In this document: positions 9,119 through 53,465 of the stretch, one piece after another | How positions within the stretch are numbered: position 1 is the stretch's first letter | Layout of the letters: every line of letters begins with the position of its first letter | Origin: an uncultured Verrucomicrobiae bacterium | GTDB taxonomy: Bacteria; Verrucomicrobiota; Verrucomicrobiia; Limisphaerales; JAFGQR01 | Direction: 5' to 3' | Assembly (NCBI GenBank): GCA_963788655.1 | Contig: CAWBHS010000089.1 | Coordinates: forward strand, 32,001 to 96,000 | Length of the DNA: 64,000 nucleotides | The notes under the pieces: model-generated | Told to the model about the DNA's origin: nothing | What the model saw: the letters and a program-made list of their open reading frames with translations, nothing else | Databases searched by the model: none | Program-made: the position numbers and the translations under genes

Positions 9119-10144
9119 ATGCGAACGAAATTAACCAACTGGAAAAACCAAGCGCAATTGAAGACGAGCTTGAGTCGGCAACGCAAGCGGAGCGCGACAA
9201 ACTCGACACCCGCAAAATCTTTGGACAGCGGCTTGCCTCTGACCAAGACCGCCGTTCAGCGGGGGTCTAGCTCCGTATCAACAGAGATTTCTCCGGAAGC
9301 GGAAGCCACGACAGCGCTGAGTCTCTATCTGCGAGAAATCGGCCAAGTGGATTTGCTCACCCTGGCACAGGAAAATGCCTTGGGCCGGCGCATCAAACGG
9401 GGCGACGCGAAAGCGCGTGACCAGATGATCAAAGCGAACCTTCGCCTGGTGGTTCACATCGCGCGCGACTATGAACATTGCGGACTGCCGCTGCTCGATC
9501 TGATCAACGAAGGCAACATCGGGTTGATGAAAGCCGCCGAGCGGTTTGATCCCGCCAAAGGTGCCAAGTTTTCCACCTACGCCTCGCTGTGGATCAAGCA
9601 GGCCATCCGACGGGGCCTGGCCGGCCAAGCCAAGACCATTCGCCTGCCGGTCAATGCCGTGGATACTCTATATCGCCTACGTCATACCGCCGTGCGGCTT
9701 AGCGAAGAACTGGGGCGCGATCCCAGCGACGAAGAACTGGCTCAGGAATTGGGAATATCCACTCGTCGAGTAACCGAATTGAACGTTGCTTCGTTGCCCC
9801 CGGCCTCCCTTGACGCCGCCATTGGAGACGACGACACGAGCCGGTTGATCGAAATCGTGGAGGACGAGCGCGCGGTCATGCCGAGTGCTGATCTGGAGGA
9901 CAAGAATAACCTGCAACTGGTGGCATCGCTCATCCAAACCCTGGAGCCGCGGGAGGCCACCATTCTGCGAATGCGATTTGGTTTGGACGGAGCCGCGGAG
10001 AGGACGTTGGAGGAAATCGGCAAGAAATTCGGCCTGACCCGCGAACGCATTCGCCAACTCCAAAACGAGGCGTTGCGCAAATTGCGCCGGGGCTTTGAGG
10101 ATCTGGACGTTAATCAACAGGACACCGTTGAGGTCGCCGCTTGA
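9119..10144 (+). CDS. RNA polymerase sigma-70 factor, RpoD/SigA family without region 1.1
   Basis: Region 1.2 LYLREIG..LLT; region 2 ANLRLVV, DLINEGNIGLMKAAERFDP.KG.KFSTYA; region 4 TLEEIG..FGLTRERIRQ. Confidence 0.93.
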   Translation: MRTKLTNWKNQAQLKTSLSRQRKRSATNSTPAKSLDSGLPLTKTAVQRGSSSVSTEISPEAEATTALSLYLREIGQVDLLTLAQENALGRRIKRGDAKARDQMIKANLRLVVHIARDYEHCGLPLLDLINEGNIGLMKAAERFDPAKGAKFSTYASLWIKQAIRRGLAGQAKTIRLPVNAVDTLYRLRHTAVRLSEELGRDPSDEELAQELGISTRRVTELNVASLPPASLDAAIGDDDTSRLIEIVEDERAVMPSADLEDKNNLQLVASLIQTLEPREATILRMRFGLDGAAERTLEEIGKKFGLTRERIRQLQNEALRKLRRGFEDLDVNQQDTVEVAA

Positions 10145-10199
10145 AACTGACTCGGCCATAAACGCGAACACAGGTTCCTTTGAAAAACCGCATCCCATT

Positions 10200-11736
10200 A
10201 TGACCAAAGAAATCATCATCATTGGCGCCGGTCCCGGCGGACTGGCTTCGGCAGTTTTACTCGCCGCGGCGGGAGCTAAAGTCAAAGTCATCGAACGACT
10301 GCCCCAAGTGGGTGGGCGAACGTCCACCATTGAAGCTCACGGTTACAAATTCGATTTGGGCCCGACCTTCTTTCTTTATCCGCGCGTGCTTGAGGACATC
10401 TTCAAGGCGGCGGGCACCGCGCTGTCAGAGCACGTGGAACTGAAGCGCCTCGACCCACAATACCGGCTGATTTTTGGCGAGGGCGGTCAACTCGATCTGT
10501 ACCCCCCAAATCGAGCAGATGGAGCGATCCATCGCCGCCCTCGCTCCAGTTGATGCGCCGTCGTTTCGGCGGTTCATCCTCGAAAACCGCACCAAGTTGG
10601 AAAAGATGCGGCCGTGTCTCGAGACCCCGTTCCTCGGTTGGAAGGATGTGCTCAACCGCCGGATGCTGGAACTTCTGCCGGTGGTGCGGCCACACCAGTC
10701 GATGGACGACTACCTGAAGCGGTTCTTCAAGGATCCGCGCATTCGCCTGGCTTTTTCCTTTCAGTCCAAATACCTGGGCATGTCGCCGTTCCGGTGCCCG
10801 AGCCTCTTTTCGATTCTTTCCTTTCTGGAATATGAATACGGCGTGTTTCATCCGGTCGGCGGTTGCGGAGCCATTTCCCAGGCCCTGGCCGAAGTGGCCT
10901 CCAGCCTGGGGGTCGAGTTTCGCTTGGATGAACCAGTGGAGGAAATGTTGTTCGCCGGGCGCAAAGCCACGGGCGTCCGCACCCGCGCCGGTGTGCATCG
11001 GGCCGACGCGGTAATTGTGAATGCCGACTTTGCCCGGGCCATGGTGCGGATGGTGCCCAACGAATTGCGCCGCCGGTGGACCGACGAGAAAATCACCAAA
11101 AAGAAATTCTCGTGCTCGACGTTCATGATGTATCTCGGGATCGAAGGCCGCTACGAATTGCCCCATCATTCGATCTTCATATCCAAGGATTATGCCCGCA
11201 ACCTGGACGAAATTGAGAACCAGCACGTGCTGTCATCTGATCCGTCCTTCTACGTGCAAAATGCGAGCGTGACCGATTCCACGCTGGCGCCCCGGAACCA
11301 CAGCGCGCTGTATTTGCTCGCTCCCGTGACTCACCAACATCCCCACGTGGACTGGTCCCGCGAACGTGAACGCTTTCGCGGAGTGCTGCTCGAAAAAATC
11401 GCCCAAGCCGGTTTTACGGACGTTGAAGCCCGCATCCGCTACGAACGGATCATTACCCCCGCCGATTGGGACCAGCGTTACGAAATTTATCGAGGCGCCA
11501 CGTTCAACCTGGCGCACTCACTGGACCAGATGCTGCACCTTCGACCGCGCAATCGGTTCGAGGATCTCGACGGAGTTTATCTCGTTGGCGGCGGCACCCA
11601 CCCGGGGAGTGGATTGCCGGTGATTTTTGAATCCGCTCGCATTACCAGCCGGCTTTTGCTGGACGATTTGGGCGTCACGCCGACCGTGGCTCCCGTCCGG
11701 CTGGAAGCCCAGTCCACCACTCTCCAACCAGCCTGA
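10200..11736 (+). CDS. crtN: phytoene/diapophytoene desaturase, CrtI/CrtN family (frameshift near 10497)
   Basis: IIGAGPGGL FAD motif, FDLGPTF, C-terminal LVGGGTHPGSGLP; two overlapping ORFs joined by one indel. Confidence 0.8.
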
Positions 11737-17558: not shown

Positions 17559-17723
17559 AGCTGATTTCGTCCACGTAGCGCAAGCAAGGGAGCCCTGCGC
17601 TACCAACACAATCAAGACGCACGGCTCGGGGCTGTAGCTCCAAAAAAATGCGGGACATTCGGGGTAATTTATGATACGCATTACCTCGTAACCCGTTTTA
17701 TTGGCGAAAGTGAAGTTCAATCT

Positions 17724-20700
17724 ATGAAACGTCGTATCATTTCCTCCCTGGTGATTCTCTTCCTATGTAGCCCCGCTGTGCTTCCGTTGTTCGCGGCGGA
17801 TACTATCGTCATTTCGGAATTCATGGCCAATAACAATGGGATCCTTGCGGACGAGGACGGCGACTTTTCGGATTGGATTGAACTCCATAATCCCACGGCC
17901 ACGGTCGTCGAGCTGGAAGGCTATTACCTGAGCGATGATCCGGGCCTGCTGACCAAGTGGGCCTTCCCGGCGGTCAGCCTGTCGCCGGACGGCTATTTGG
18001 TGGTGTTCGCATCCGGCAAGAACCGCTCCAATCCGGGCGGCCAGTTGCACACGAGTTTTCAATTGAATACTGATGGCGAGTTTCTGGCGCTGGTGTTGCC
18101 GGATGGGCACACGCTGGCCAGCGTGTTCAATCCGGAGTATCCACCACAACGCGAGGACGTGGCCTACGGCGTGGCCCAACAACCCGTGTCCATCGCACTT
18201 ATCGCCAGCTCGGTGCCGCAGATTCTGGTGCCGGCCAATGCCGGCGAATTACCGGCGAATTGGAGCGCGGTCGATTTCCAACCCGACGGCAATTGGATTA
18301 ATGGCAGCGCCCCGGCGGCTATTGGCTTCGATACCGATCAACCAACGGCCACGCCCGTAAACGTCGCTCCCGGTGGCACAGCCGTGCAAAGCACCACCTC
18401 CGGCGGTAACACCGCCAACCTGGCCACCGATGGCAGCACGGCAAATTTCACCCACACCCTGTCCGCTGACACTTCGCCATTTTGGCAGGTTACACTGGCC
18501 AGTGAAACCGCCGTGTATCGTGTCGTATTGCGCAATCGCACGAGTTGCTGCCAGTCCCGGTTGCGCGATATCACCGTGCAAATTCTTTCGGCGGACGGCA
18601 ACGCCACCAACTACAACTCTTCCCTGCTCAACGCGGAGAATGTGGGTTACACCTATCCGGCTGGCCCGGCTTCGATTGAAGTCGATTTGACCGCGCTGGC
18701 GGGCGGCCCGGTGTTGGGCCAGGTGATACGGGTGTTGCGCGCGCCGGACCCGGACCTTTCCGGCAGTGGTGGCCAGGGCGGTGCTGACGAAGTTGCCGTG
18801 TTGTCGTTGGCGGAAGTTGAGGTCCATGGCGTGCCCACGGCTACTGAAGTGAATCTGGCCCGCACCGGCAGTCCGGCGCCCACCGCGTCCCAATCGTCCA
18901 CTTTGAGCACTTACACTCCGGACCTCGCCATCAATGGCAACCTCGGTGATTTCACGCATACCGCCAGCGCGGACTCCAATCCCACTTGGACCCTCAATCT
19001 GGGGCGCCGCTCCGTGGTCAATTCCGTGACGATTCACAACCGTGATGACTGCTGCGGATCGCGATTGCGCGACCTCACCGTGCAAATTCTCGACACCGAC
19101 GGTTCGACCGCGGTTTATACTTCACCCTTGTTGAATCCGGAGAATGCCGGTTACAGTTTTCCGAACGGCCCAGACCATCTCGATGTTGTTCCTCCCGCGC
19201 CGGTGCTCGGCCAATACGTGCGCATCCGGCGGACCCCGGACCCCGATCTTTCCGGCACTGGTGGCCAGGGTAATACTGACGAAGCCGGTGTCTTAGCCCT
19301 GGGCGAAGTGATCGTGCTGGGTTTGGATGTGAACGGCTATCGTCCGTTTATCCGCACCGACCTCGAGAACCAAATGCTCGGCAACAATGCTTCGGCGTTT
19401 GTGCGCCTACCCTTTACGGTGGATGATCCGTCGGTGCTGGATGAACTCACGTTGCGGTTGCGCTACGACGACGGATTTATTGCCTATCTTAATGGGGTGA
19501 AAATCGCCGAACGTAACGCGCCCGCCACGCCCGCCTGGAATTCGGCTGCCACCGTTGATCGCGACCTCGCCAGCGGCATCCTACCGGAAACGATTTCGTT
19601 GACTGACTACCTGCCGCAACTAATGGCCGGCGTCAACGTGCTGGCAATTCAGGCGATGAACTCGAGCGTCAGTGACGGCAATTTTCTACTCCAACCGGAA
19701 TTGACCGGCGCGCAGATTGAAGAGAGTCCGTATGCCTATCTGGTGGACGCCACACCCGGTACCCGCAACGAAACGGACTATTACTTTGGCGACGTGGCGG
19801 ACACCCAGTTCAGCGTGGACCGCGGATTCTTCGATGCACCGTTTACATTGGAGATCACTTCCGCGACGCCCGATGCACAGATCTATTATTCCTTGGACGG
19901 CAGTGAGCCCAGCGCCAGCCGGGGCCTGCTTTATACCGAACCGTTGACCATCACGAACACCACCATCGTCCGCGCCCGCGCGTTCAAGCCGGATCTCAAG
20001 CCAACAGATATTGACACGGAGACTTACATCTTTCTGGACGATGTCATTCACCAGGCGCCCACCGGGGCGGCTCCGCCCAATTTCCCCGCGTCATGGGGCC
20101 GGAACCGCGTCGATTACGGCATGGACCCAACCGTCGTGTCCAAATACTCCCTGGCCGAATGGCACGAGGCACTGACGCAAATCCCGACCATGTCGATCGT
20201 CACCGAGGTGGAGAACCTTTTTGATCCGGTGACGGGCATCTACGCCAACGCGGATGGGCACGGCGAAGACTGGGAACGGCCCAGTTCGATTGAGTTGATC
20301 GATCCGCACGGCACCCCGCAAGGCCAGTTCCAGGAGAACTGCGGGCTGCGCATTCGGGGTGGCTACAGCCGCAACACCGACTTCGTGAAACATTCCCTGC
20401 GCGTCTTTTTCCGGCGCGATTACGGAGCGGCCAAACTGCACTACCCACTCTTCGAAAACGAGGGCGCCGACACCTTTGACACGTTTGATTTGCGCACCAG
20501 CCAAAATTACGCCTGGCCGCGGGAAACCAGCTTGAGCAACGGTCAAAACGATACGCTGGTCCGCGAAGTGTTTTGCCGCGAAACCCTGGGCAAGATGGGC
20601 CAACCCTACCGTCGCTCACGCTACTATCACCTTTATCTGAATGGACAGTATTGGGGTATCTATATGACCGATGAGCGACCGGAGGCTTCCTACGGCGCCA

Positions 20701-23700
20701 CCTACCTCGGCGGTAACAAGGATGATTATGACGTGGTGAAATGTGCCAATCACATCGGCAATTTCGTGACCGAAGCCACGGATGGCAACTTCGGTACCTG
20801 GACCAATTTGTTTACCATGGGGCTAGACATGCTCGACGACAGCGGCAATGCCAATTATTTCCGCATGCTGGGCCGCAATCCGGACGGCACCCGCAATCCC
20901 GCGCTGCCCGTGATGGTCGATGCCGATAACCTGATCAATTACATGCTGGGGATTTTTTACACGGGCGACGGCGATGCCACGCTGTCGTCTTTCCTGGGAA
21001 ATACCGAACCAAACAATTGGTTTGGTATGAAGAACCGCAATAATCCCGACCAGGGTTTCTTGTTCTTCAACAGTGATTGCGAGCACACCCTGGGCGCCCC
21101 CAGCAGTCAGGTGGACCGCACCGGACCGTGGAAGGACATTGCGGGATCGAATGTCCGCAATTTCACCTATTCCAACCCGCAGTACCTGCACGAAGAATTG
21201 ATGCTCAATCCCGAGTACCGCCTCCTTTTTGCCGACCACGTGCAACGCCATTTCTTCAATGGCGGTGTGCTCACTCCGGAAGCATGCACGAATCGCTTCT
21301 TGCGCTGGGCGGACCAGATCAACCAAGCCATCCGCGCCTACGAAGCCCGCTGGGGCGACGCGAATAACGCCCACGTCAAATATTCCGCGACCGATTGGAC
21401 CAATCGCATTAACACCATCGTCAACTCCTGGTTCCCCAACCGCACGGCCACGGTGCTCCAGCAGCTCAAAGTCGATAACCTGTATCCCGCCATTAGTGCG
21501 CCGGAATTCAGTCAGCTTGGCGGCGACATTGCCGAAGGCTTCAACTTGACCATGACCAATCCCAACGCGAGCGGCGCTATTTACTACACGCTCGACGGCA
21601 CGGACCCGCGCCAGGTGGGCGGAACCGTCAATCCCACGGCCGCAGCGTACAGCAGCCCGATTGCGTTGAACGCCAGCACGCGCGTGAAAGCCCGGGTGCT
21701 CAACGGTTCAACCTGGAGCGCCCTGGTGGAAGCCGATTTTGCCATCCCCGGCATCGTGCCGTTGCGCATCACCGAATTGATGTACCACCCGGCCCCGGTG
21801 AGCGCAACCGAGGCGGCGGCGGGATTCAGCAACGCCGACGACTTCGAATTCATCGAACTGCGCAACGTCGGCGCGATCACCATCAACCTGGCCGGCATCC
21901 AATTCGTTGACGGGATCACCTTCACCTTCCCCAGCGGCAGCTTGGCGCCCGGCGAACGTATCCTGGTGGTGAAGAATCTGGCCGCCTTCAACCTGCGCTA
22001 CGGACCCGTGAGTCGTGTGGCCGGTTATTATAGCGGCAACCTGAACAATGCCGGCGAGCATCTCCGGCTCCAGGACGCGGCGGGGCGGGCCATCCTGGAT
22101 TTCTCCTACGCGGACGGGTGGTATCCCATCACGGACGGATTTGGTTTCTCGTTGGTGGCCGTGGATGAGAACGCGCCAGCTTCGACTTGGGGCAGCAAGT
22201 CCAGTTGGCAGTCGGGCAGCAACCTGGGCGGTTCGCCCGGCGCGGCCAATCCTCCGTCACCGGGAATCCCCTTCGTCGTCATCAACGAAGTGCTCACCCG
22301 GCCGGCGGCGGGCGGCAAGGTCAGCGTTGAACTCGCCAACTTGAGCGACAGTCCGGCTGATGTTGGTAACTGGTGGCTGACGGATGATTTTCGCAATCCC
22401 TGGAAGTTCCGTTTGCCGGCGAACACCATCATTCCCGTGGGCGGTTTTGTGGTATTCAATGAAGATGATTTCGGCCCGACCGCATTGGGAATGAATGCTA
22501 TACAGTTGAGCAGCGCCGGCAGCGAAATTCGCTTGTTCAGCGCGGACGCCAATGGGGATTTCACCGGCTACGTCCAAGGCTGGGACTTTGGACCGGCGGA
22601 AGCTGACGTGAGCTTTGGCCGGTACGTGATTAGCACCGGCGCGGACCATCTGGTGGCGCAAACCGCCGTGACGCTGGATGCCACGAATGCCGAACCGCGG
22701 ATTGGCCCGGTGGTGATCAGCGAGATCATGTATCGTCCACCCGACCTGGGCATGAACGACAACAGCCGGGATGAATACCTCGAACTGTTGAACACTTCCC
22801 CGAATCCGGTGCCGTTGTTTGAACCGGCTGCGCCGGTTTACACGTGGCGGGTCACGGGCGGTGTGGATTTCGCCTTGCCACCCGATCTGACTCTGGCGGC
22901 CGGCGAATACTTGTTGGTGGTCAGTTTCAATCCGGCGACTGACCCGGCATTGCTGGCCGATTTCCGCGTCCGCTATTCCGTACCCGCCAACGTTTGCATC
23001 CTGGGACCCTACAGCGGCAAGCTCGACAACTCCGGGGAAAGCGTGGAATTGCGAACGGCAATCCGGTTGCCGACCAGTCTGCCGGCTTGGGCGATAGCGG
23101 ACAAGGTTTCCTACGAAGACGCCGACCCGTGGCCGGGCGGCGCCGACGGTTACGGACCCTCGCTGCAACGTGTGGACGTGGCTGCGTACGGCAATGATCC
23201 AGTGAATTGGGTGGCGGTGGGACCGCGTCCCGGCCGGACCTTTGTCGGCGGCACGCTGCCGGTGATCACAATCCAGCCCACGGACCAAGCAGCGGTGGAG
23301 CAAACGAGCGCCACGTTTAGTGTCGAGGTGGAAGACAGCAGTGCCGTTACGTACCAGTGGCGTTTCGAAGGCCACAATATTGCGGATGCCACCAACACAA
23401 CGTATTCGATTGAGCCTGTGCAGCCCGCGGATGAGGGCTTGTATTCGGTGGTGATTCTGGGTGCGGGTGGCGCCGTGGTCAGCAGCAACGCCGCGCTCAC
23501 CGTGCTCTCATTGCCCAAAATTATCGTCCACCCGGAAAGCCAAACCGTGGATGCTGGCGGCACGGCGATGCTCTCCGTCGTCGCCTCGGGCACGGGTTCT
23601 CTGAGCTACCAATGGCGGCGCAATGGGATCGACGTTCCCGGCGCGACCAGCGCCTCGCTAACCGTGACGGATCTCCAACTCGACGTGAATGACGGGATCT

Positions 23701-24978
23701 ACACGGTGGTGGTTACCGACGCGGTGGGATCGCGCGAGAGCCATCCCGCGCTGGTGGTCTTGCTCCTGCCGCCGGCCGTTGTGGAAGGCCCCTTTCCGAC
23801 CAATCAGGTCGTGGCCTCGGGCAGCACCTTCACCATCAGTCTGACGGTTCGGGGCACGTTGCCGATCGGCTATTATTGGCGCCTCGGGAACGGGTATTAT
23901 AACTTCGAATCCGGAGGCGGGTACACCTATGCCGAGACGAACTCGGCGTACGTCAGCACGAGCGTGCTGGTGATTACCAACGCGCAGAAGGCCTTACACG
24001 AGAATAAATATCGCGTGGGCATCAGCAACAGTGTTCAGACCTACCAAACTGCCAGTGCCTATGCCTATGTGACCGTCATTGACGGCCCGGCCATTACGCT
24101 GCAGCCGACCAATCAATCGGCCGCGCTGGGTGCCCCGGTTACCTTCCATGCCGGCGCGAGCGGCGAAGCGCCGTTGACGTTCCAATGGTGGCACAATGAC
24201 GCTCCGATCGCCGGCGCCACCGGCACCAGTTACAGCCTCAACAGCGTGCAGGCCAGCGACGCCGGCGCGTACACGTTTGTGGCGAGCAATCCGGCCGCCA
24301 GCGCCACGAGCCACGTGGCGTATCTGACGCTGCCCGTGGCTCCGACCATTGTCACGCAACCGGCGGATCAAGCGGTGCATGTCTGCTCGAATGCGGTGTT
24401 CACGGTCGAAGCCAGCGGGGCGCCCTTGAGCTACCAATGGTGGTTCAATGCGACCAATCGCCTGGCCAATGAAACCAATGCCAGCCTGGTGATCGTTCAG
24501 CCGGGCCTGGCCGATGAGGGCCGTTACTCGGTGGTGGTCAGCAATCTCTTTGGCGCGACGCCGAGTGACGCCGCCACGTTGACCCTGCTCGACGGGGACA
24601 GCGATGGTGACGGCATGAGCGACACCTGGGAACTGGCGCACGGCTTGAATCCTTGCGATGCGTCGGACCGCGATCTCGACCCGGACCAGGACGGGCGCAC
24701 CAACTGGCAGGAATTTGTTAGCGGCACCGACCCGGGCAGCAACGCCAGCGTTCTGCGGGTGAGTTTGGTGGGTGACAGCGGGGGAGCGCGCATTCAATTC
24801 GAAGCGGCGCCCAATGTCGGGTACACGATCCAGGTACCGGACCAGCTTGACGGAAGGGCCTTGGCTGAAATTGACCGACATCGAACCCGCAGCGACTCCG
24901 CCGTCGGTGGACTTCCTGGATCCCAACGTAGCGGCCGATGGCGGACGGTTCTATCGCATCGTCACGCCCAGGCAGTAA
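17724..24978 (+). CDS. giant secreted protein: lamin-tail domains, two F-type-lectin/discoidin domains, CotH kinase, Ig repeats, Asp-rich Ca-binding repeat (frameshift near 24833)
   Basis: ISEFMANN/DWIELHN, NRDDCCGSRL, LRIRGGYSR..YLNGQYWGIY, ITELMYHP, YQW Ig repeats, DSDGDGMSD. True C-terminus ...RFYRIVTPRQ* lies in ORF 24772..24978. Confidence 0.85.
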
Positions 24979-25131
24979 TAGGCAGAACCTCTTCGGTTCG
25001 GAGTCCCGGCTTTAGCCGGTCAAAGCATGCATCCAAGAGCGGGCACCCAACGGTTAGGCCCCCGGTTCTGATGAATCATACAACGGCGGTTGATTAGGCA
25101 CCGAGAACGCGAAGATTTTGGACGGTTCATT

Positions 25132-30638: not shown

Positions 30639-31870
<1,232 letters not shown>

Positions 31871-31927
31871 GGGCGCCGATTAAACGGGGAAGCCTGACAG
31901 AACGCAAAGCCGAAAATGAACTGGCAA

Positions 31928-31968
31928 AATGACTGACAACCAAGGACCAAGCCCCAGAGAATGACCAA
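31928..31968 (+). repeat. heptamer-array arm, left boundary of the RM/kinase island
   Basis: AATGACTGACAACCAAGGACCAAGCCCCAGAGAATGACCAA; 31/41 identical to the reverse complement of 36579-36619. Confidence 0.65.
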
Positions 31969-32019
31969 GGGCGAAGGCGCAAGTTCCATCACGGCGTAAC
32001 GCGCCTCCCAATGCGCCAC

Positions 32020-32907
32020 GCTTGAGCAAGCTGCGTAAATCGTCGCGGTCTTTGGCCTGCACCGGCGTCTGGCGCAGCAACTCTTTGCAAAACGAGAATG
32101 TGTCGAAAAGCTGGTCGTCCAAATCGTTACGGTCGGTCAACACGACAACGGTAGGATTCTCCATCGCCGGGTGTTGCACGATCTTTCCGGCGTAGAACAC
32201 CATCGAAAGACTTTTACCGCTCCCTTGCGTATGCCAGATGACGCCTGCGCGACGGTCGCCAATATTTTCCGAGGTAGGAGACGAGGTGACGAGGCTCTGA
32301 CTAATTTCCGATTTTGAAGTTCGAGTCTCCTCACGTCGTCTCCTACTGGATTCAGAGGAAACACCCGCCGCCCGCAAGGTCGTTTCCACCGCTTTATTGA
32401 CGGCGTGGAACTGATGATAGCCCGCCAGCTTCTTCACGACCTTTTCGCCGTCGTCCTCGAATACGATGAAATTGCGGATTAAGTCCAACAAGCGGTGATT
32501 GTCGAACACGCCTTTGAGCAGCGTTTCCAGTTGCAACGAACCGGGCGGGACAAGCTCCTTTCCCGTAATGGTGCGCCACGTCATGAACCGCTCCCAATCA
32601 GACGTGACCGTGCCGAGCCGCGCTTCGTGGCCATCGGAAACGCGCGATTGTTCTCGATGAGCGTGGGATAATTGACCAAACGCAGTTTGCGCAACGTTTC
32701 CTGCAACCCCTCCGGCGGAATCTTGGAATTCAAATCCTCCAGCTTGGTTTGCAGCCGGTCGAAAAGAAAAACCTGCTGGTAATCCGCCCGCTCCGCCGCT
32801 GATTCACCCGGCGCGATGGTGAGGCCAGATAAAACCTCGCAACCAAGCTCACGAAGCCTGTCGAGCGAGCATTCTTCAACGACCGACTCCGTGATCCCTT
32901 TGCTCAT
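32020..32907 (-). pseudogene. hsdR: type I restriction subunit R remnant (internal deletion and C-terminal truncation)
   Basis: ITESVVE..., LIENNRAF fused to SDGHEARLG..FMTWRT; YHQFHAV; WHTQGSGKS (Walker A); TDRNDLDDQL; similarity ends after RSLLK. Confidence 0.85.
32274..32346. repeat. GTAG palindromic element inserted in frame in hsdR
   Basis: GTAGGAGACGAGGTGACGAGGCTC ... GAGTCTCCTCACGTCGTCTCCTAC (21/24). Confidence 0.8.
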
Positions 32908-33773
32908 TTCTTCTTTGGTTTGTCGTGCAACACCATCTCCGACAACTCGTGGTTGCCGATTTCTTCGGCAACGTGCTCCGCGAAGTGTTCCAGTTCATTC
33001 TCGCGGACAAGTTGTTTATGCCCCGGAATCTTGCTCAACAGATGAAACGCGTTTTCAAACGCCTTCTTGGTCTCATCCTGGCGCGGCTCGCCCAGCAGGA
33101 AGTGAATCTTGAATTTCTCCCGTGCATCATGCAGCGCAACTCCGCGGCCAAGCCATTTATTCGCCTTCTCACGGATGCTGCCCGGATCAACGAGGTCAAA
33201 CGAAACCGGCTCGTAGAGATGCCAGACGTCATTCTTCCACGCGAAGCGAAAATCGTATTGGTAGTCCTTCGTCTCGATTTTCTTTTCCGCCAGCTTTTCC
33301 GCCGTCTTGCCCAGCCTCGCTTTGAACGGCTTTGCAATTTCCTCGTCGCTCCGGCTCACCTGTTCCGCGCCGGCGACGTATCGCTCCACCAACCGCTTGA
33401 ACAATTCGTCCATTGTCTTCGCCACGTCCTCCGTGAAACCGCCGCCCTGTTCCGACCATTGCAGCGAACTGTCGTCCGGTGGCAGCACTTGCCGGACGAT
33501 TTCCTTGAGCGCAGTCACCGGTGGAACTTCGAGACCGTCGCGGATTTCGGCGGCGATTTCGTCGAACCGGTTCGCCATGTAACGCATCAAGGCCCGGTAG
33601 TGCAGATGGTCAATCTTCAAAAAGATCGCGTTCAACCGTCCGTAGGACGTGGTGAAGCGGGCTTCCAGATACCGTTGCTCGGGCGAATAGAGCACAACCC
33701 CGATGTTGGCGAATTCGCCGGTCACAACGTCGTGCAGATAACGCAGTGTGATGGTGCTGTAGGTTGGTTTCAT
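32904..33773 (-). CDS. DUF3037-domain protein
   Basis: Y..LRY..D...GEFANIGVVL N-terminal signature; start overlaps the kinase stop (ATGA). Confidence 0.8.
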   Translation of the reverse strand: MKPTYSTITLRYLHDVVTGEFANIGVVLYSPEQRYLEARFTTSYGRLNAIFLKIDHLHYRALMRYMANRFDEIAAEIRDGLEVPPVTALKEIVRQVLPPDDSSLQWSEQGGGFTEDVAKTMDELFKRLVERYVAGAEQVSRSDEEIAKPFKARLGKTAEKLAEKKIETKDYQYDFRFAWKNDVWHLYEPVSFDLVDPGSIREKANKWLGRGVALHDAREKFKIHFLLGEPRQDETKKAFENAFHLLSKIPGHKQLVRENELEHFAEHVAEEIGNHELSEMVLHDKPKKK

Positions 33774-34574
33774 CGCAGTATGTGTTTTACGTAATTTACC
33801 AAATTGTCCCGGTGCTGGCGAGCCTCTCGGAGATACGCGGCGACCTGCTCGCCAAAGTCGCTCTGTCCCAGCCACTCCGCCGGAACAGCGTCAAGATAGC
33901 CTTGAATCCGCTTGTCAGACAGTGCGCCGAGCTTTTCCTTGAATGGGCCAAGATTCAGCCGCCCGCCGCGCAAGTCTGCCATAGAAAACGTGCTGTTCCA
34001 GAAACCGGAAACCATTCCCCTGACTGGCTGCGGCCCAGGGCTTTGGCGCTCCACCGATAATCGGCACGGACAAGAATGAGAACGCCTGCTCATGGTCGTA
34101 AACGCCGAGCCGGTCCGAACGCGCCCAAAGGTTGGGATTCACCGCCCGCCGGTCCGCATTCTGGATCAACGTGTCGAAGGCAAAAATATCCGCCGCTTGA
34201 TCCCGTTGCGCGCCGACCGGGTTGCGGCCGGGCGGCCACGTCGTAAATCCCGCGCCAAGGTGAACCGAACCAAAATTCAAGCCGGGACTGCCTTTAACCA
34301 ATTTCACCAGTTCGCGTTCGGCTATGACAGCTTCAAAACCAACCGGCACGTCCACGACCGCTGCTTGCGGGACTTGCAGTCCAAGGTTGTCTGCCAATTG
34401 CGCGGTGAGCAATTCGGCGGTTTGCGCCGTCCCGGTCATCTCGCGCCCGCGAAACTTCACCACCACCTCAAACGTGTCACCGCCCGCGTTCTCGCAACCC
34501 AGCAACAGCGGATGATTCCGCCCTGTGGACATCGCCTTGATGAATTGCGTGGCTGTGAGCTCCAGGACTTCCAT
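33770..34574 (-). CDS. HipA-like/PI3K-fold kinase (frameshift near 33975)
   Basis: STGRNHP loop, VVKF, AELL, FDTLIQNADR...NPNL, YDHEQAF; C-terminus continues in ORF 33770..34093. Confidence 0.82.
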
Positions 34575-34576
34575 AG

Positions 34577-35638
34577 TCAGGTGGTTGCCTCCACAAGTTT
34601 GGCGGCGGCGGGCACGCGCAACTCGCCCGACAGCAGCTTCGGCATCAGCGCGTCGCGCAGCGCGGCGAGGGTGCGGGATTCGTGGAGGTTCGCAATGATT
34701 CGTTCGACGAGCGGATGAATCTTCTCAGTGAACTCGGCGGCAAGCTGTTTCGGTGGCAGCGCAACTTCGTAACGGGAAATGTCATTCCAATTTGCCCGTG
34801 GCATCTTCGTTCTGGTTGAAGCTGCGTTTGTGTGGTTCACAAGCTCGACGCTGGAAACGTGGCCAAGCACAAAGCCGAACCATGCAGGTTCTTTTGGCGT
34901 GATGACCAAAATATCTGTTGAGCAAACGCCATCCAGCGGGGCGACACCGATTTTGTGAAAGTAAGGCCGCAGTTTGCCGAAAAGGATTTCGCCGCGCTTG
35001 AACTCGAATTTGCCACTCTCCAACTCTTCGGTGTGCCCCCAATCGGAAAGCGCAATGCAACGACGCGGCATGTGTTCAAGTCCGATGTATGCCATATCGG
35101 TTTTAATTTGGTCCGGCTGGATTCCGCGACGCGGATTCTCGGCGACTTCACCGAGCGTTCCCGCGCGCCAGCCTTTGGGGAGGGCGGATTGGCCTGCCTG
35201 TCTGCGGGACGCAGGCAGGGTGGCCCGATCCACGAACCAGGATTTGAACAGGCTCTGGGCCAGCGCCTCCAGCGTCTCGTTCATCCGCCGGTTCAAATCA
35301 ATCTTGTCGTCCAGAGTGCCCAACACCGCGGCAATTGCACGCTGTTCGTTTGGCTCGGGAATGCAAATGGGAATATGGTAAATGAAATTCCGATTTAGTG
35401 ATGCCTGTGCGCTGCCCGAGTTGTATCGGCTGAAATCAATAGACTTCAGAAAATAATAGGTGAACCGCGTGTCGTTGCCGCGAAAGTCTGTGACGTAAAG
35501 CGCGGTGTTGTGCGGCCAGTAATCAGTCGGGCAATAGTGAACTTGCCCGAATGATGCGCCGCTACGACCAACAACAACTCCCGGCCCTTTGGCTTTGGCT
35601 ATGGCGTGGTAACCGTTCATTCCAGCAGAACCCAGAAC
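34577..35638 (-). pseudogene. hsdS: type I RM specificity subunit S, N-terminally truncated
   Basis: EQRAIAAVLGTLDDKIDLN, LFKSWF, LPKGW, LAALRDALMPKLLSGE; begins at an internal VLGSAG motif. Confidence 0.82.
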
Positions 35639-36298
35639 ACGCGGCCTTTGTAGGGTTCAAGCATGGCGACGAGCACCTGCACGACGCATTGCGGGGTGTA
35701 GAACTCGCCGCCGCCCTTGCCTTCCGCGCTGGCGAATTTGCCGAGAAAGTATTCATAGACGCGCCCGAGCACGTCCTTGGACTTCGCCGCCGATTCGTTG
35801 AAGCCGATGTTGCTGATGATGTCCACGAGTCCGCCGAGCCGGACTTTGTCGAGGCTGGGCCGGGCGTAATCGCGCGGCAGCACGCCTTTGAGCGTGGGAT
35901 TCTCGCGCTCAATCGCGCCCATCGCGTCGTCAATGACCTTGCCAATCTCCGGCGACTTGGCTTTGGCCTTGATGGTGTGCCAGCGGGCTTCGGGCGGCAG
36001 CCAGAAGACATTCGCGGCCAGATATTCGTCGCGGTTCTCGGCGGCGTCGGCGCGTTGCGGTTCGTCCTTGATGAACCATTCGCTCTTGGGATCGGAGAAG
36101 CCGAACAGCAGTTGCTCGCGTTTTTCCTCGAAGGCGTCGGAGATGTATTTCAGGAAGATGAGGCCGAGGCAGACGTGCTTGTATTCCGAGGCGTCCATGT
36201 GCCCGCGCATCTTGTCGGCGGCGGCCCAGAGCTGGGCTTCAAAGTTCGAGGGCGGAGCCGTTGCCGTTGGGCTTTTTCTGAGGTCGTGCTTTCGCCAT
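35617..36298 (-). pseudogene. hsdM: type I RM methyltransferase subunit M, N-terminal part only
   Basis: [37 protein letters not shown]; stops before DPxxGSGG and NPPF. Confidence 0.85.
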
Positions 36299-36486
36299 GC
36301 GTCAATGCGGTTTAATCATAGTCCGCTTCAGTCTTGGTTTAAAGGCTGCCTCGCAAACAAGTCTTGCTTCCCGTTAACGAATTCGAGGATGCGCCCAAAT
36401 TGTTTGTAATGGTAAAGAGCCAAAATTGGATCCTGGGGTCATGTAAACGGGGGCGGCCCAAACGATGAAGACTCGTGCAACAGGCC

Positions 36487-36628: not shown

Positions 36629-37505
36629 TCACTGAAGATACGGTTCAATGTGGACCAGCACGTCGAACACGGCGGGGATTTCGACACACACCTGGTCCTT
36701 GACCGCATGGGCAATCGCGTGGGCTTTCTTGACGGAGATCTCGGGGTCCACTTCCACGTGCATGTCCACGTAAAATTGGAATCCCATTTTGCGCACGCGG
36801 CATTTTTCAATCCTCGCCACCCCCTCCACCTGACCGGCAACGGCGCGGATCTTCTTGATCAGACCGGGATCGGGCGCGGTGTCCATGAGTTCATTCAGGG
36901 CGGGCCGCAGCAGGCGCCAGCCGTTCCAGGCAATAATGACGGCCGCGACAATGGCAGCAATGTCGTCGGCAATTTCGAATCCAGGTCCGCCGATCAACGC
37001 CACGGAAATGCCGATGGCCGCGGCGATGGAGGTGATGGCGTCACTGCGATGGTGCCAGGCATCGCTGCGCACTACGGAACTTTCCACCGAGTTGGCTTCC
37101 CGCAAGGCGAAGCGGAACAACGCTTCTTTGATGGCCACTACCGCAAACAGGACGGCCAACGTGAAGGGCGCCGGTCCGATTTGGGGATTAATGATTTCAT
37201 GGATGGCCTCAACCGTAATCCACACGGCGGCCAGCAACAGCATGGTGGCCACCAAGGCAGCCGCAATGGGTTCGGCTTTGCCGTGCCCGTACAGGATGAT
37301 CCATGTCTGGTGGCTCGGAGGCCACCACCAGGCCCCGCCAAACAATCACCGAGCTGATAATGTCCGACAGTGATTCCACAGCATCGGCGACCAGCGCATG
37401 GGAATGTCCGAGGAGCCCCGCCGTCAGTTTGCTGCCTGCCAGAGCCGTGTTCGCCGCCAACCCGATGAAGGTGACGCGCAAGCCGCGATAGAGACGCTGG
37501 TCCAA
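36629..37505 (-). CDS. cation diffusion facilitator transporter, FieF-like (frameshift near 37295)
   Basis: SHALVADAVESLSD, PPD..HPYGHGKAE, DAWHHRSD, VLVHIEP. Confidence 0.9.
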
Positions 37506-37527
37506 ATTTCGAGGTCCGTTCAGCGGT

Positions 37528-39103
37528 TCAGGCCCAGTAGTGGTAATTCACTTCCGGGAACAGGTTGTCCGTGGCTTCAATCTGCGCCAGCCAATGTTCG
37601 TCGATGCGCGTGGTGGTCAATTGCTCGTGCAGCGCAATAAACCGGAGCAAATGATCTTTGACCCGCTTCCGGGCGTAATCAGGGCTGGTGCCGGTGCGCA
37701 GGATGAACGGCCAGTCGCTGGACTGCGCCAGCAGCAATTCCCGCGCGGCTTGTTTGAGCGCGCGCTCGATCCAGCCCGTGGCGTTCGGGAATTGGCGGGC
37801 CAGTTGGGTCATCCGTTCCTGGGCGACGTGCAAGTGCGGGTAAATCCATTCGTTGGTTTCGTTCAGCCAAACCCTCCAGTAGCCTTCCTCGCCCCAACTT
37901 GAAGCGCTGGGCTGGCCAACTTGATTGGTGGGATATTGCCGCAGGTAGTCGCTCGGCGTGATGAGCGCGACGGTGCTTTGCTCGAACAACAGCTTGCGCA
38001 CCAAGTAATCCAGGAATTCCGGCCCTTCATACCACCAATGCCCAAACAGTTCCGCGTCGTACGGCGCCACAATCACCGGCGGACGTTCCATGATCGAGGC
38101 CAGTTCATTGACCTGTTTGAGGCGGGCCTGGAGAAAATGTTGGGCGTGTTCCGCCGCCACGTACAGGGCAGCCTTCCGATCGTAAATCTGCTTGTCCGGT
38201 GCCGGGCCGGTGATGCTGTAATACTTGATCCCGGTGAAACTGCGTTGATTGCCGGTGGGCAGGTGCGGTCGCACATAATCGAAATCCAGATCGAACCCGA
38301 TGTCGCGGTAGAAATCACGGTAGCGGGTATCACCGGGATACCCTTCGTGCTTGCTCCAAACTTGTTTGGCAGACTCCAAGTCCCGTCCAAACGCGGCGAG
38401 TCCATTGGGCGTAAACAGCGGCGCATAGACGCCAAAACGCGGCCGGGGACGGGCATGAAGAAGGCCGTGGGTATCGAGGATGAACCAGCGAATCTCCGCT
38501 TCCTGCAAGATCGGTTCAAGCCCCTCAAGGTAGGCGCACTCCGGCAGCCAGATGCCGCGCGGATCGCGGCCAAAGCACGCCCGGTAAGGATCGCGCGCCA
38601 CGAGGATTTGGGCGCGGAGCGACGGACGATGATCGGCCAGCAGCGGCAGCAAGGCATGCGTGGCGGCGGAGGTGATGATCTCCAGTTGGCCGGCGTCCTG
38701 GAATCGGCCGAACGCCGCGACCAGGTTCTGTTGGCAGGCCTGATACGTTTGGCGCAGCGATTTGAACCGCTCGAAATACATTTGGGCCAGTGGATGACAG
38801 GCCGAGTCCCAGGCCGTGCGGTGAACTTCCTTGTCGGCCAACTCGACCAATCCGTCCAGATGCCGGACATAGCGCGCTTGCAGCAACGGATCGAGCAACA
38901 TGGCGCAGAGCGTCGGTGAGAGCGTCAAGGTCAGCCGCCAGTCCAATTCGTCGCGCCGCCAGCCTCCCAGCATTTGGAGCAAGGGCAGGTACAGTCTCGG
39001 TGATGGCTTCGTAAAGCCAGTTCTCTTCGAGGAAACGGTCGTGTTCGGGATGCCGCACGAAGGGCAGGTGGGCGTGCAACACGAGCGAAAGATAGCCTTT
39101 CAT
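37528..39103 (-). CDS. GH57 1,4-alpha-glucan branching enzyme, DUF1957 type (frameshift near 38990)
   Basis: LVLHAHLPFVRHP, GIWLPECAY, APYDAELFGHWWYEG, LLAQSSDWPF. Confidence 0.92.
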
Positions 39104-39196
39104 GACGGAGCAAAAAATGGATTACCGCCAGCGTATAAGACTCGGAATTGGCTTCTCAAGTGAATCCTTCTTAAGGGCAACCGGCCGCGCAGTGCC

Positions 39197-50725: not shown

Positions 50726-53337
50726 TCAGAAGCCTTCGCGTTTGTATAATTCCTTCGCCGACTTCTGTTGGTTCTTCCGCGCATCGTCGGTAAAGTCGCG
50801 CTCCGCTTTGCTGATGCCCGGCAATTTGGCTTTTTCTTCCATGGCCACCAAGGCGGCGTCCTCCGGGGTGTTCAGCACTTTGGGCCGGATGAGAATCATC
50901 AACTCGACCCGGTTGCCGGACTTGGTGGTGCTGCGGAAGAGCGAGCCCAGCAGCGGGATGTCCTTGAGGAACGGCACGCCGGAATTCGAGCTGCGCTTTT
51001 CGGTGCGCATGAAGCCGCCCAGAATCACTGTCTCGCCGTCGCGCACCGACACCTTGGCATTGGCCGATCGCTCGACGGTCGTGGGCACGTCATTGCCGTC
51101 GATCTTGACCGGCTCACCGACATTATCGACGCGCTGGTCGATGTCCATGACCACCAGGCCGTCCGGGTTGATCAACGGTAGCACGTTCAGCTCGATGCCG
51201 ATGCGCAATTGGGCGATCTGCGATTGGGATGCCGCCGTAGCCGCCGTAGCCGGCCGGTGACATAAGGCCGCGTCTCACCGACGAAGATGCGGCACGGCAC
51301 GGCGTGCGAGGTTTGCACCCGCGGGCGGGACAGAACCTTGACATCGCCCACGCTGGCAATCGCCTGAATGGCCAGGTCGAGGTCGTTGCGGTACGCCGCG
51401 AAGTAGGAAAATCCGCTCTGCAAACCGGGGATCGAGGGCACCCCGTTGCTGCTTGAGCCGGTCCGGCCCAGCCAGGACCAGGGCTCGGCCGCGTTTTGTC
51501 CGCTGTTGTAGCCGCCGACGCCCGCCCACTTGCCGGCGACTTCCGGCCGCTGCAAGGCGCTCACGCCGAAACTGAAGGTGTCGTTGAGGGAGACTTCCAG
51601 GACCACCGCTTCGATGAGCACCTGGGCGAGCACCACGTCGAGCTTGGAGACAATTTCCTGGATCATTTCGATGTCCTCCTCCGAGGCGAAAATCAACAGC
51701 GAATTGGTGCGTTCGTCGGCAATGATTTTCGTTTTGCCCAGCACCACAATATCCTCGTCGGTGGCCTTGTTGACGATTTGCTGGAGACGCTGCTGGAAGG
51801 AGGCTTTCGGGGTGACCACATCCAGTGAGGCATTGTCGGCACCGGACAACGGGACAACGGCTTCCGAACGAGGATAAACCCCTCCGCTATACCCGCCCCC
51901 ATAGCTGCTGCCGTAACGGCTGCTCGAGCCGCCGTAAGAGGAACCGTAGCCGCTGCCGCCGGCGCTGTAGCCGGGCAGTCCGCCGCCCCCGCCCCCGCCC
52001 GGCGTGCTGAACCGTTGCGAGCTGACGCTTTGACCGCCAACGGAAGTCACGGCGCCGCCGCCCTCCGTGAGGCTGCTCAACACTTGGGCGATGTCCGCGG
52101 CCAAGGCGTATTTGATGGGGATAACCACCGGTCTAACGTCGCGCGGGATGTACACGTCAATTTCCCGGATCAGTTCCACCATGCGTTTGATGTTGATGGC
52201 GTAGTCGCGCAGGACCAACGTTTGCGTGCTCTTGATCGCCATGATGCTGTCGGGCGCCTTGGACGCAAAGGGCTTGAGGGCATCGACAATGTCGCCAGGA
52301 TCCGTGTATTTCAATTTGGCGACGTAGCAGATGTATTGCTTGCCTTCCGGCAAATCCTCCGGATCGGCGTCGTAGAAGGTCATACCGGCCTGGGGAGCTT
52401 CGGCGGTGGGCAGCGCCTGCACAAACTTGTCGCCCATGGGCACCATGGTAACCCCATTCAGGGCCAGGATACTATCCAAAGCCTGGATGGCTTCTTTGCG
52501 GGTCAAGTCGGTTTGCGTATATAGGGTGATGGGCTGCTGCGGTAACGAGGACGGCCGCAGAATGGTCCGTCCGGTCAGATCCTGATACACGACGAGCACC
52601 TGGCTCAAGTCAAGTTCTTCAAACTTGATCTGGCCGGCGGGAATGATCTGGTTCTCGGCCGCTTCCCCTTCGGCTCCGCCCTCGTCCGGTTTGGCGGTCG
52701 CTGTTGCCGACGGCAGATTGGTCCGCAAGGACGGAGGAAGTCCGGCGGGCACGCCGGGCGGCCGGGCACCGGGTACTGGCGGAATAGCGGCGGTGGCTCC
52801 CGGAGCGGGGGGCACCGGGATGGCCGTGGGTCCGGGTCGTCGTACCGGCGGGTTGCGCACGGGATTGGGCGCCGCCGGATTGGTGGTGGGCGTCGGCAGA
52901 CCCGGCCGGGCGGAAGGGGTGGGTAATTTCGGAGCCACCGCAGGCGGGATCGTCGGTGGGGCGGCGCTGGCGGTCGGCGCGTTGCTGGTGCGCAATGGCA
53001 CCGGAGCCATGGCGGCGCGCGGTTCGACTCGGAGGAAACGATCCGGCAGCGAGGAATGATTCGTGGCCAAACCCGCCTCGACGATGATGGTGCCCAAGGG
53101 ATCCGGCACCGTGGTGACCGTGGTCTCCGGTTGGGTGATTCCGGCAAGGTCCGGCTGGGGCAGTCCATCCATGCGGGCGTACGCCCGGTCCATTGCTTGG
53201 CGAATTCTCGCCTGCTGGTTCGGCAGCGCTTCGGCGGGGGAAGCCGTGGGACTCGGTTGCGGCGCTTGCGCCCAGACCGCCCAGGCGCAGCCAATGGTCA
53301 ATACGATTTGGAGAACAGTTTTCACGGCAAGATTCAA
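50726..53337 (-). CDS. gspD: type II secretion secretin GspD (frameshift near 51250)
   Basis: IIADERTNSLLI, QVLIEAVVLEV, VLSRPRV, GETVILGG, SGVPFLKDIPLLGSLF, ELMILIRP. Confidence 0.9.
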
Positions 53338-53465
53338 TTTGATGATTGGGTGGGTACGTTGAGCAAACGAGGGAGCGCCCGCGGCGGTCGTCCGGCGACT
53401 ACCGTATCCAAGCGGACGCAGCGGTCGGTGGACAGGTTCGCGATGGGGGACTCAATATTCACGGT

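Follow-up and report, generated by a model that had tools for sequence, protein, structure and literature searches.

A HipA-like kinase and DUF3037 gene pair of the PDC-M66 type within a broken type I restriction-modification operon of a Verrucomicrobiae bacterium

What is a gene pair for a HipA-like kinase and a DUF3037-domain protein doing inside a type I restriction-modification (RM) operon whose three hsd genes are all broken? This question is raised by a locus on contig CAWBHS010000089.1 of an uncultured Verrucomicrobiae bacterium (assembly GCA_963788655.1), from which the stretch of 64,000 nucleotides (nt) between positions 32,001 and 96,000, called the window below, was analysed. As shown in Table 1, the genes lie on the minus strand in the order hsdM-hsdS-kinase-DUF3037-hsdR, with argG directly after the hsdR remnant. 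An ATGA overlap at 33770-33773 joins the kinase and DUF3037 genes, another at 32904-32907 joins the DUF3037 gene and hsdR, and the hsdS/kinase junction is a 2-nt gap (hsdS TGA, 'ct', kinase ATG). This order and these junctions agreed with a preliminary description of the locus made from the DNA alone; the ATGA at 35617-35620, between hsdM and hsdS, coincides with a deletion junction instead of being the native M/S one. The pair is intact apart from a one-base insertion in the kinase gene. The two genes probably form an anti-phage module, carried as type I RM cargo and related to DS-6/HipAD. This reading is built on what the analysis observed: the identity of the family, the order of the genes, their conservation and their association with RM and other defence genes.

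Both proteins could be assigned to a family. The kinase matched Pfam HipA_2 with an E-value of 1e-15 (58.1 bits against a cut-off of 27) and the PADLOC model PDC-M66A with 1.9e-47 (profile positions 12-212) and 7.9e-11 (184-269 of 270) in two frames. The DUF3037 protein matched Pfam DUF3037 with 2.5e-20 at residues 9-129, its N-terminal domain, and PDC-M66B with 3.4e-76 over profile positions 3-279 of 281. The PADLOC E-values were far beyond chance for both models, and the two genes also show the PDC-M66 layout, being adjacent on one strand with overlapping stop and start codons. Judged by these matches, the pair is the PADLOC candidate system PDC-M66, which is already catalogued and experimentally supported in relatives; a PADLOC search had been proposed in the preliminary description. 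NCBIfam had no model for either protein. No helix-turn-helix (HTH) family was found in the kinase or the DUF3037 protein and the gene upstream is hsdS, which bears out the earlier statement that a HipB-type HTH antitoxin is absent.

According to a PLoS Biology 2025 paper (PMC12548924), there is a strong association between DUF3037 and HipA-like kinases, and a HipA/DUF3037 pair linked to Retron-Sda1 was assigned to PDC-M66 by PADLOC. In the same paper, deletion of the kinase from the Sda1 pair abolished defence against phage Bas51, deletion of DUF3037 was toxic, and defence was independent of the reverse transcriptase and the noncoding RNA. DS-6 (HipAD), which consists of a HipA-related kinase and a DUF3037+DUF1829 protein, was validated in the DefensePredictor paper (Science 2026, PMC13092281); a catalytic mutant of the kinase lost defence, and AlphaFold3 predicted an interaction between kinase and partner with an interface score (ipTM) of 0.76-0.79. 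The PDC set goes back to genes found within BREX, DISARM or type I RM systems (bioRxiv 10.1101/2024.01.29.577857). A term search in the Gerdes HipA phylogeny (PMC8262856) gave no mention of DUF3037. The core inference of the preliminary description, a kinase toxin-antitoxin or abortive-infection module within a type I RM operon, was right and was already established for PDC-M66.

Intact homologues of the kinase are 265-268 amino acids (aa) long. When the intact homologue P0122 was used in tblastn, identities of 187/202 (93%) and 64/67 (96%) were obtained in two frames. At the break point the intact 267-268-aa homologues read ...EQHVFYGSLRGGRL..., and comparison with P0122 and P0124 placed one extra base at 33975, the single indel that had been noticed earlier. 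The invariant kinase columns, defined from a 57-sequence alignment, were G18, P22, K40, E54, F133-D134, N139, D141-R142, N148, D160-H161 and H196. Every one of them is retained in the window reading, whose frame is broken at 33975. The claim that the kinase motifs are kept therefore stood, and the spacing of the catalytic loop, given before as D-x3-N, had to be corrected to D-x4-N-x-D-R. The ratio of nonsynonymous to synonymous substitution rates (dN/dS) of the kinase was 0.15 against L002 and 0.08 against L006, two of the related loci treated below.

The DUF3037 protein has homologues of the same length that are 74-93% identical to it. In a 90%-clustered set, 679 relatives were found at E ≤ 0.001, the best of them 93% identical, and the named ones came from Verrucomicrobiota metagenome-assembled genomes. 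At 50% identity, 1500 clusters were found at E ≤ 0.001 and 256 at E ≤ 1e-30; among the matches listed (150 clusters), most were about 280 aa long and aligned over nearly the whole protein. A tblastn search gave no match in 50,697 phage records and matches in 13 plasmid records, 2 of them near full length. RefSeq plasmid pairs are annotated as 'HipA family kinase' and 'DUF3037 domain-containing protein'. On a Bacteroides plasmid (L083, 3223-4366) the kinase-partner DUF3037 protein is 127 aa long and consists of the N-domain only, and a Hymenobacter plasmid (L082, 3180-4843) carries an annotated 133-aa DUF3037 protein and a separate 92-aa hypothetical protein. Such short kinase partners hint that the N-domain is the kinase-facing part.

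Related loci were collected by a scan of one genome per species with a 15-sequence alignment, which returned at least 545 relatives. The best 80 of 545 loci were kept and annotated with profiles built in this analysis, and all of them were found through DUF3037. The kinase was directly upstream of DUF3037 in 70 of the 80 loci by strict adjacency, and a kinase open reading frame (ORF) was present in 71; the two genes overlap by 4 nt in 58 of the 70 adjacent pairs. Genes of the hsd type were found on 36 of the 80 loci, where four 'hsdM' profile matches of about 1,070-1,260 aa (L010, L018, L032 and L068) may be other N6-methyltransferases. Upstream sequence of at least 3 kb was available for 56 loci; 22 of these carry same-strand hsdM/S there, within 300 nt in 12 of them. 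In 19 loci the nearest upstream hsdM/S end was no more than 300 nt from the pair. The layout M-S-pair-R or pair-R was seen in 8 loci, including L009 and L045, mirroring the window, and the layout R-M-S-pair in 12. The locus is an ordinary instance of the system in its usual place within a type I RM operon.

The neighbours of the pair were also enriched in defence genes, an enrichment that the preliminary description had suggested looking for. In loci L001-L054, 35 of 113 same-strand neighbour ORFs matched defence models at E ≤ 1e-8, versus 1 of 35 window ORFs outside the locus, which served as the control (Fisher p = 2.6e-4). The matches include AbiP2, GmrSD-like Orf5, Septu, SIR2-HerA, type III and type IV restriction genes and several PDCs.

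In some related loci the kinase slot holds no kinase. It is occupied by a PIN gene in L074 (6.9e-17), a weak PIN-like ORF in L001 (1.6e-4), a TIR gene in L055 (3e-19), a 23S-IVP/bAvd-like gene in L021, a PrrC fragment in L027 and HerA in L014. The DUF3037 genes of the kinase-less loci are tips nested among kinase-linked ones in a quick tree, and their N-domains are 90-96% identical to those of kinase-linked neighbours. The PIN gene of L074 (9368-10843) is overlapped by an upstream 77-aa ORF of its own, in L055 (1951-3405) the end of the kinase gene, its last ~25 codons, persists at 2417-2548 next to the TIR gene, and in L001 (8675-10870) AbiP2 and SieB-like genes lie upstream of the weak PIN-like ORF. 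The partner ORF of L074 and the kinase remnant of L055 point to cassette replacements that left DUF3037 behind. By the same two observations, the idea that DUF3037 is a promiscuous antitoxin for kinase, PIN and TIR toxins was considered and largely rejected. The space between hsdS and DUF3037/hsdR behaves as a cargo-exchange hotspot. Decay of the module tends to remove the kinase and to leave DUF3037, an asymmetry that is biased since it was seen only in loci found through DUF3037. In L002 (20-1705), a close relative, hsdS and the kinase share a single open frame, in which the first ~12 kinase codons are apparently replaced by the hsdS C-terminus, as either a fusion or a small deletion.

The hsd deletions were mapped against intact relatives. 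HsdM retains residues 17-219 of 724 (L001 HsdM as reference) at 90.6% identity and is truncated after 'EPYKGRV'. HsdS is without roughly its first 90-115 residues, as the tblastn matches of the L009 and L008 HsdS begin at query residues 92 and 116, respectively. HsdR retains residues 1-90 and 196-405 of 1062 (tblastn, L001 HsdR) and the remaining ~657 residues are gone; its internal deletion removed ~319 nt with a change of frame at a TTTC microhomology near 32640. All three hsd genes thus carry large deletions, as previously described. Pairwise dN/dS was 0.10 for the hsdM remnant, 0.14 for the hsdR remnants and 0.05-0.07 for the DUF3037 gene, and the test is rough because dS against L001 was 0.5-1.3, near saturation. 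The hsd remnants, with values of the purifying type, show no relaxation, so that the deletions are recent relative to the split from L001; the host RM operon was thus destroyed recently, by three deletions. An inverted repeat at 32274-32346 within the hsdR remnant (29-nt arms, 83% complementary, 15-nt loop) encodes an unusual Ser/Arg/Glu-rich stretch between conserved helicase motifs. The operon of the closest relative (L001, 3949-8443), with a 724-aa HsdM, is also remodelled: its hsdS-like DNA is two short remnants (6136-6232 and 6820-6893) flanking a SieB-like gene, with an AbiP2 reverse transcriptase after them.

The suggestion that the pair outlived the operon through addiction found no support in this comparison. 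A signature of long survival of the pair after the death of the RM genes was sought by dN/dS and none was seen, the hsd values (0.10-0.14) being much like those of the pair (0.05-0.15). Moreover, the kinase is itself frameshifted, and in relatives, all found through DUF3037, it is the kinase that is lost or replaced while DUF3037 stays. Retention by addiction is not supported, and no evidence for or against addiction was obtained.

In the mechanism that we favour, the ~267-aa kinase would be the toxin, a minimal HipA_2-type Ser/Thr kinase. The DUF3037 protein, encoded downstream and presumably translationally coupled, would neutralise the kinase, most likely by binding through its N-terminal DUF3037 domain. 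Phage infection would be the trigger that releases the kinase, which would then phosphorylate an essential target and stop growth (abortive infection). The target may be aminoacyl-tRNA synthetases, a suggestion made solely by analogy with HipA. In type I RM operons the module travels as cargo placed immediately 3' of hsdS. Toxicity, neutralisation and defence are taken from the literature on relatives and would hold here by analogy.

Several points weigh against this mechanism. The HipA_C score of the kinase was 16.3 bits, under the Pfam cut-off of 30.5, and a kinase profile searched against the PDB returned chance-level matches only and no solved HipA structure at E ≤ 1. 'HipA-like' consequently denotes a distant relationship, and the target of HipA cannot be transferred to this kinase. 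DS-6B is DUF3037 plus DUF1829, whereas the C-terminal domain (C-domain) of the window protein is without DUF1829, for which neither it nor any of 94 subfamily members matched at E ≤ 1. Experiments were made on more distant relatives and none on this locus or on relatives more than 70% identical. Of the 71 related loci in which a kinase ORF was found, 5 have it divided between two ORFs. The frameshift could also be real, because the extra base, in the minus-strand context 'ggcag[a]cttg', is outside any homopolymer and because the gene call of the public contig, P0121 (219 aa), has the same break. On that view the whole locus would be a decaying pseudogene island, with the toxin dead, an orphan antitoxin gene left and no defence function, which would also suit the three broken hsd genes and the recurrent loss of the toxin with DUF3037 kept in L055, L074 and L001. 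What speaks against such an island is that at least six further frameshifts lie in non-defence, housekeeping-type genes elsewhere in the 64-kb window, two of them in argG, and fit an indel-prone assembly better; at the indel rate of the window, the 805-nt kinase gene would carry one or more indels with a probability of ~8%. The two kinase halves are also 93-96% identical to intact homologues, with no invariant residue lost, and the kinase dN/dS is low. Because of the frameshifts in non-defence genes, the 33975 indel is probably an assembly error, an indel-prone assembly being the simplest reading of the window frameshifts, and we regard the pseudogene island as unlikely.

The position of the pair suggests two other explanations. 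It could be a guard in the manner of PrrC, silenced by the restriction complex and firing when a phage anti-restriction protein disables that complex, so that after deletion of the RM genes the pair would be untriggerable or lost. PrrC is a precedent for cargo embedded in type I RM, and the pair stands immediately after hsdS in both layouts, M-S-pair-R and R-M-S-pair, with hsdM/S as close as noted above in 19 loci. However, related pairs defend when cloned without RM genes, as described in both experimental papers (PMC12548924, PMC13092281). The fetched stretch lacks hsd genes in 44 of the 80 loci, and among the 56 loci for which 3 kb or more of upstream sequence was available, 34 show no hsd upstream. 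In other loci the pair has Septu, type III RM or type IV restriction genes as neighbours, and it has no similarity to PrrC, which makes such a guard most unlikely. The same position immediately 3' of hsdS in both operon layouts is the ground for a second possibility, that the module has a functional link with the methylase-specificity half of the type I RM system and is not a mere passenger, and that the conserved, PD-(D/E)xK-like C-domain could be what releases the kinase. We consider this quite improbable; if true, the C-domain would read DNA or the state of the restriction complex, and the 'antitoxin' would act as phage sensor in a second, restriction-linked line of defence. Finally, the DUF3037 protein may be the effector or sensor, its C-domain, with a fold like that of PD-(D/E)xK nucleases, cutting or binding nucleic acid under the regulation of the kinase, which would then not be the toxin. 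The C-terminal ~150 aa matched no Pfam family, and none of the 94 subfamily members matched one there. AlphaFold2 modelled the whole protein with a mean local confidence (pLDDT) of 94.2 and a template-modelling confidence (pTM) of 0.74, and residues 136-289 with 89.4 and 0.83, in the order α-βββ-α-β-α-β-α. In the predicted C-domain model, DSSP gave H8-25, E27-32, E37-45, E49-56, H62-79 and E86-93, an α-βββ-α-β core. Foldseek against the PDB returned no match at E ≤ 0.001 for the full-length or the C-domain model, and the top C-domain matches were mostly PD-(D/E)xK nucleases, with VC1899 the best (4.6e-3), followed by Cdn1, HamA, Card1, Can2, FokI, EcoT38I, SfsA and SduA; their probability was up to 0.91 and their TMq 0.33-0.44. 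In BFVD, the matches comprised two unnamed viral proteins (3e-12 and 5e-8, with TM-scores of 0.33-0.36, across ~290-300 alignment columns), a DUF1828 protein and phage 'restriction endonuclease' entries. K180, N181, E188, D193 and K203 are invariant or nearly invariant polar residues of the C-domain. The canonical D...(D/E)xK motif is not evident in the C-domain, with no ExK or DxK on the third strand; a sequence-profile search of the DUF3037 protein against the PDB gave chance-level matches only, and in the ESM Atlas the C-terminal half matched only clusters without a name. The model order and the nuclease-dominated matches weakly support the restriction-endonuclease-like fold proposed earlier, which, given the E-values and a catalytic motif that is not evident, is a reasonable but unproven lead. 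Against an effector role, DUF3037 deletion is toxic and defence requires kinase activity in relatives, as those papers report (PMC12548924, PMC13092281), and the C-domain is absent from some kinase partners, so that we hold this role to be very unlikely.

The remaining features of the window are included in Table 1. Several split genes are among them, so that the contig looks indel-prone and caution is needed with any frameshift in the window; when genomes are scanned, a single-base frameshift in this contig should not be taken for a biological feature. The promoter-like site upstream of hsdM is a possible operon promoter by its sequence, and the promoter scan gave 3 sites versus 1.4 +/- 1.1 in shuffles, the scan for promoters and terminators performing no better than shuffles. 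A 2510-codon open frame at 17565-25094, with lamin-tail, CotH kinase, F5/8 type C, Ig and chitobiase-C domains, is unrelated to the pair.

Table 1. Positions of the locus and of other features in the window
Feature	Position	Strand	Remarks
hsdM remnant	35617-36298	minus	HsdM_N and first 48 positions of N6_Mtase; Pfam, PADLOC MTase_I
hsdS remnant	34577-35620	minus	PADLOC Specificity_I 2e-69, from profile position 40
HipA-like Ser/Thr kinase gene (PDC-M66A; Pfam HipA_2)	33770-34574	minus	~267 codons in two frames
Extra base in kinase gene	33975	minus	frame shifts after ...EQHVFYG
DUF3037-domain gene (PDC-M66B)	32904-33773	minus	intact, 289 aa
hsdR remnant	31880-32907	minus	Pfam HSDR_N; SWI2_SNF2 positions 1-91 of 221
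Promoter-like site TTTAAA-17-TATGAT	36315-36343	minus	upstream of hsdM start; consensus match only
Extra C at hsdM 5' end	near 36246		1-nt insertion
Amine oxidase gene	10038-10550 and 10471-11733		frameshifted
argG	30639-31879		in three pieces (two frameshifts)
Cation-efflux gene	37212-37547 and 36632-37345		frameshifted
GH57 branching-enzyme gene	37528-39121		frameshifted
Secretin gene	51190-53451 and 50729-51274		frameshifted

The locus matters little beyond annotation; with it, a defence family already present in PADLOC gains a member from the Verrucomicrobiota. Three points may be useful: the C-domain of a large subfamily (256 clusters at 50% identity with E ≤ 1e-30) is not DUF1829 and, in the predicted model, looks distantly nuclease-like; the place of the pair, immediately behind hsdS, is constant in two operon layouts; and, in loci found through DUF3037, decay tends to take the kinase and spare DUF3037.

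Among known systems, canonical HipBA would share with the window pair a HipA-superfamily Ser/Thr kinase toxin neutralised by the product of an adjacent gene. The window pair differs from it by the reversed order, with the toxin first, and by the lack of an HTH antitoxin, the upstream position of a HipB-type antitoxin being occupied by hsdS. HipA is ~440 aa long, compared with 267 aa for the window kinase, in which the Pfam scan found no N-terminal HipA family and which, with its sub-threshold HipA_C score, matched no solved HipA structure. PrrC-type cargo and the window pair have the same location in a type I operon, with hsdS on one side and hsdR on the other, but PrrC is unrelated to either window protein (no PrrC match in PADLOC). 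The activity of PrrC depends on its RM partner, whereas relatives of the window pair work without RM genes. DS-6/HipAD also combines a HipA-related kinase with a DUF3037 partner unlike HipB, and the same toxin-antitoxin and abortive-infection logic has been proposed for it; the catalytic residues of a HipA-family kinase, K40, E54, D134, N139, D141-R142 and D160-H161, are present in the window kinase. HipAD was reported from E. coli prophages, in contrast to the window DUF3037 protein, which was unmatched in phage records. From PDC-M66 as represented by the Sda1 pair, which is likened to the window pair by its PADLOC type and not residue by residue, the window pair differs by its broken host RM operon, the 1-nt kinase insertion and the absence of a retron. 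With PDC-M66 it shares near end-to-end matches to both models, the kinase-first order and the overlapping genes, and its type I RM setting is one of the three contexts from which the PDC set was drawn.

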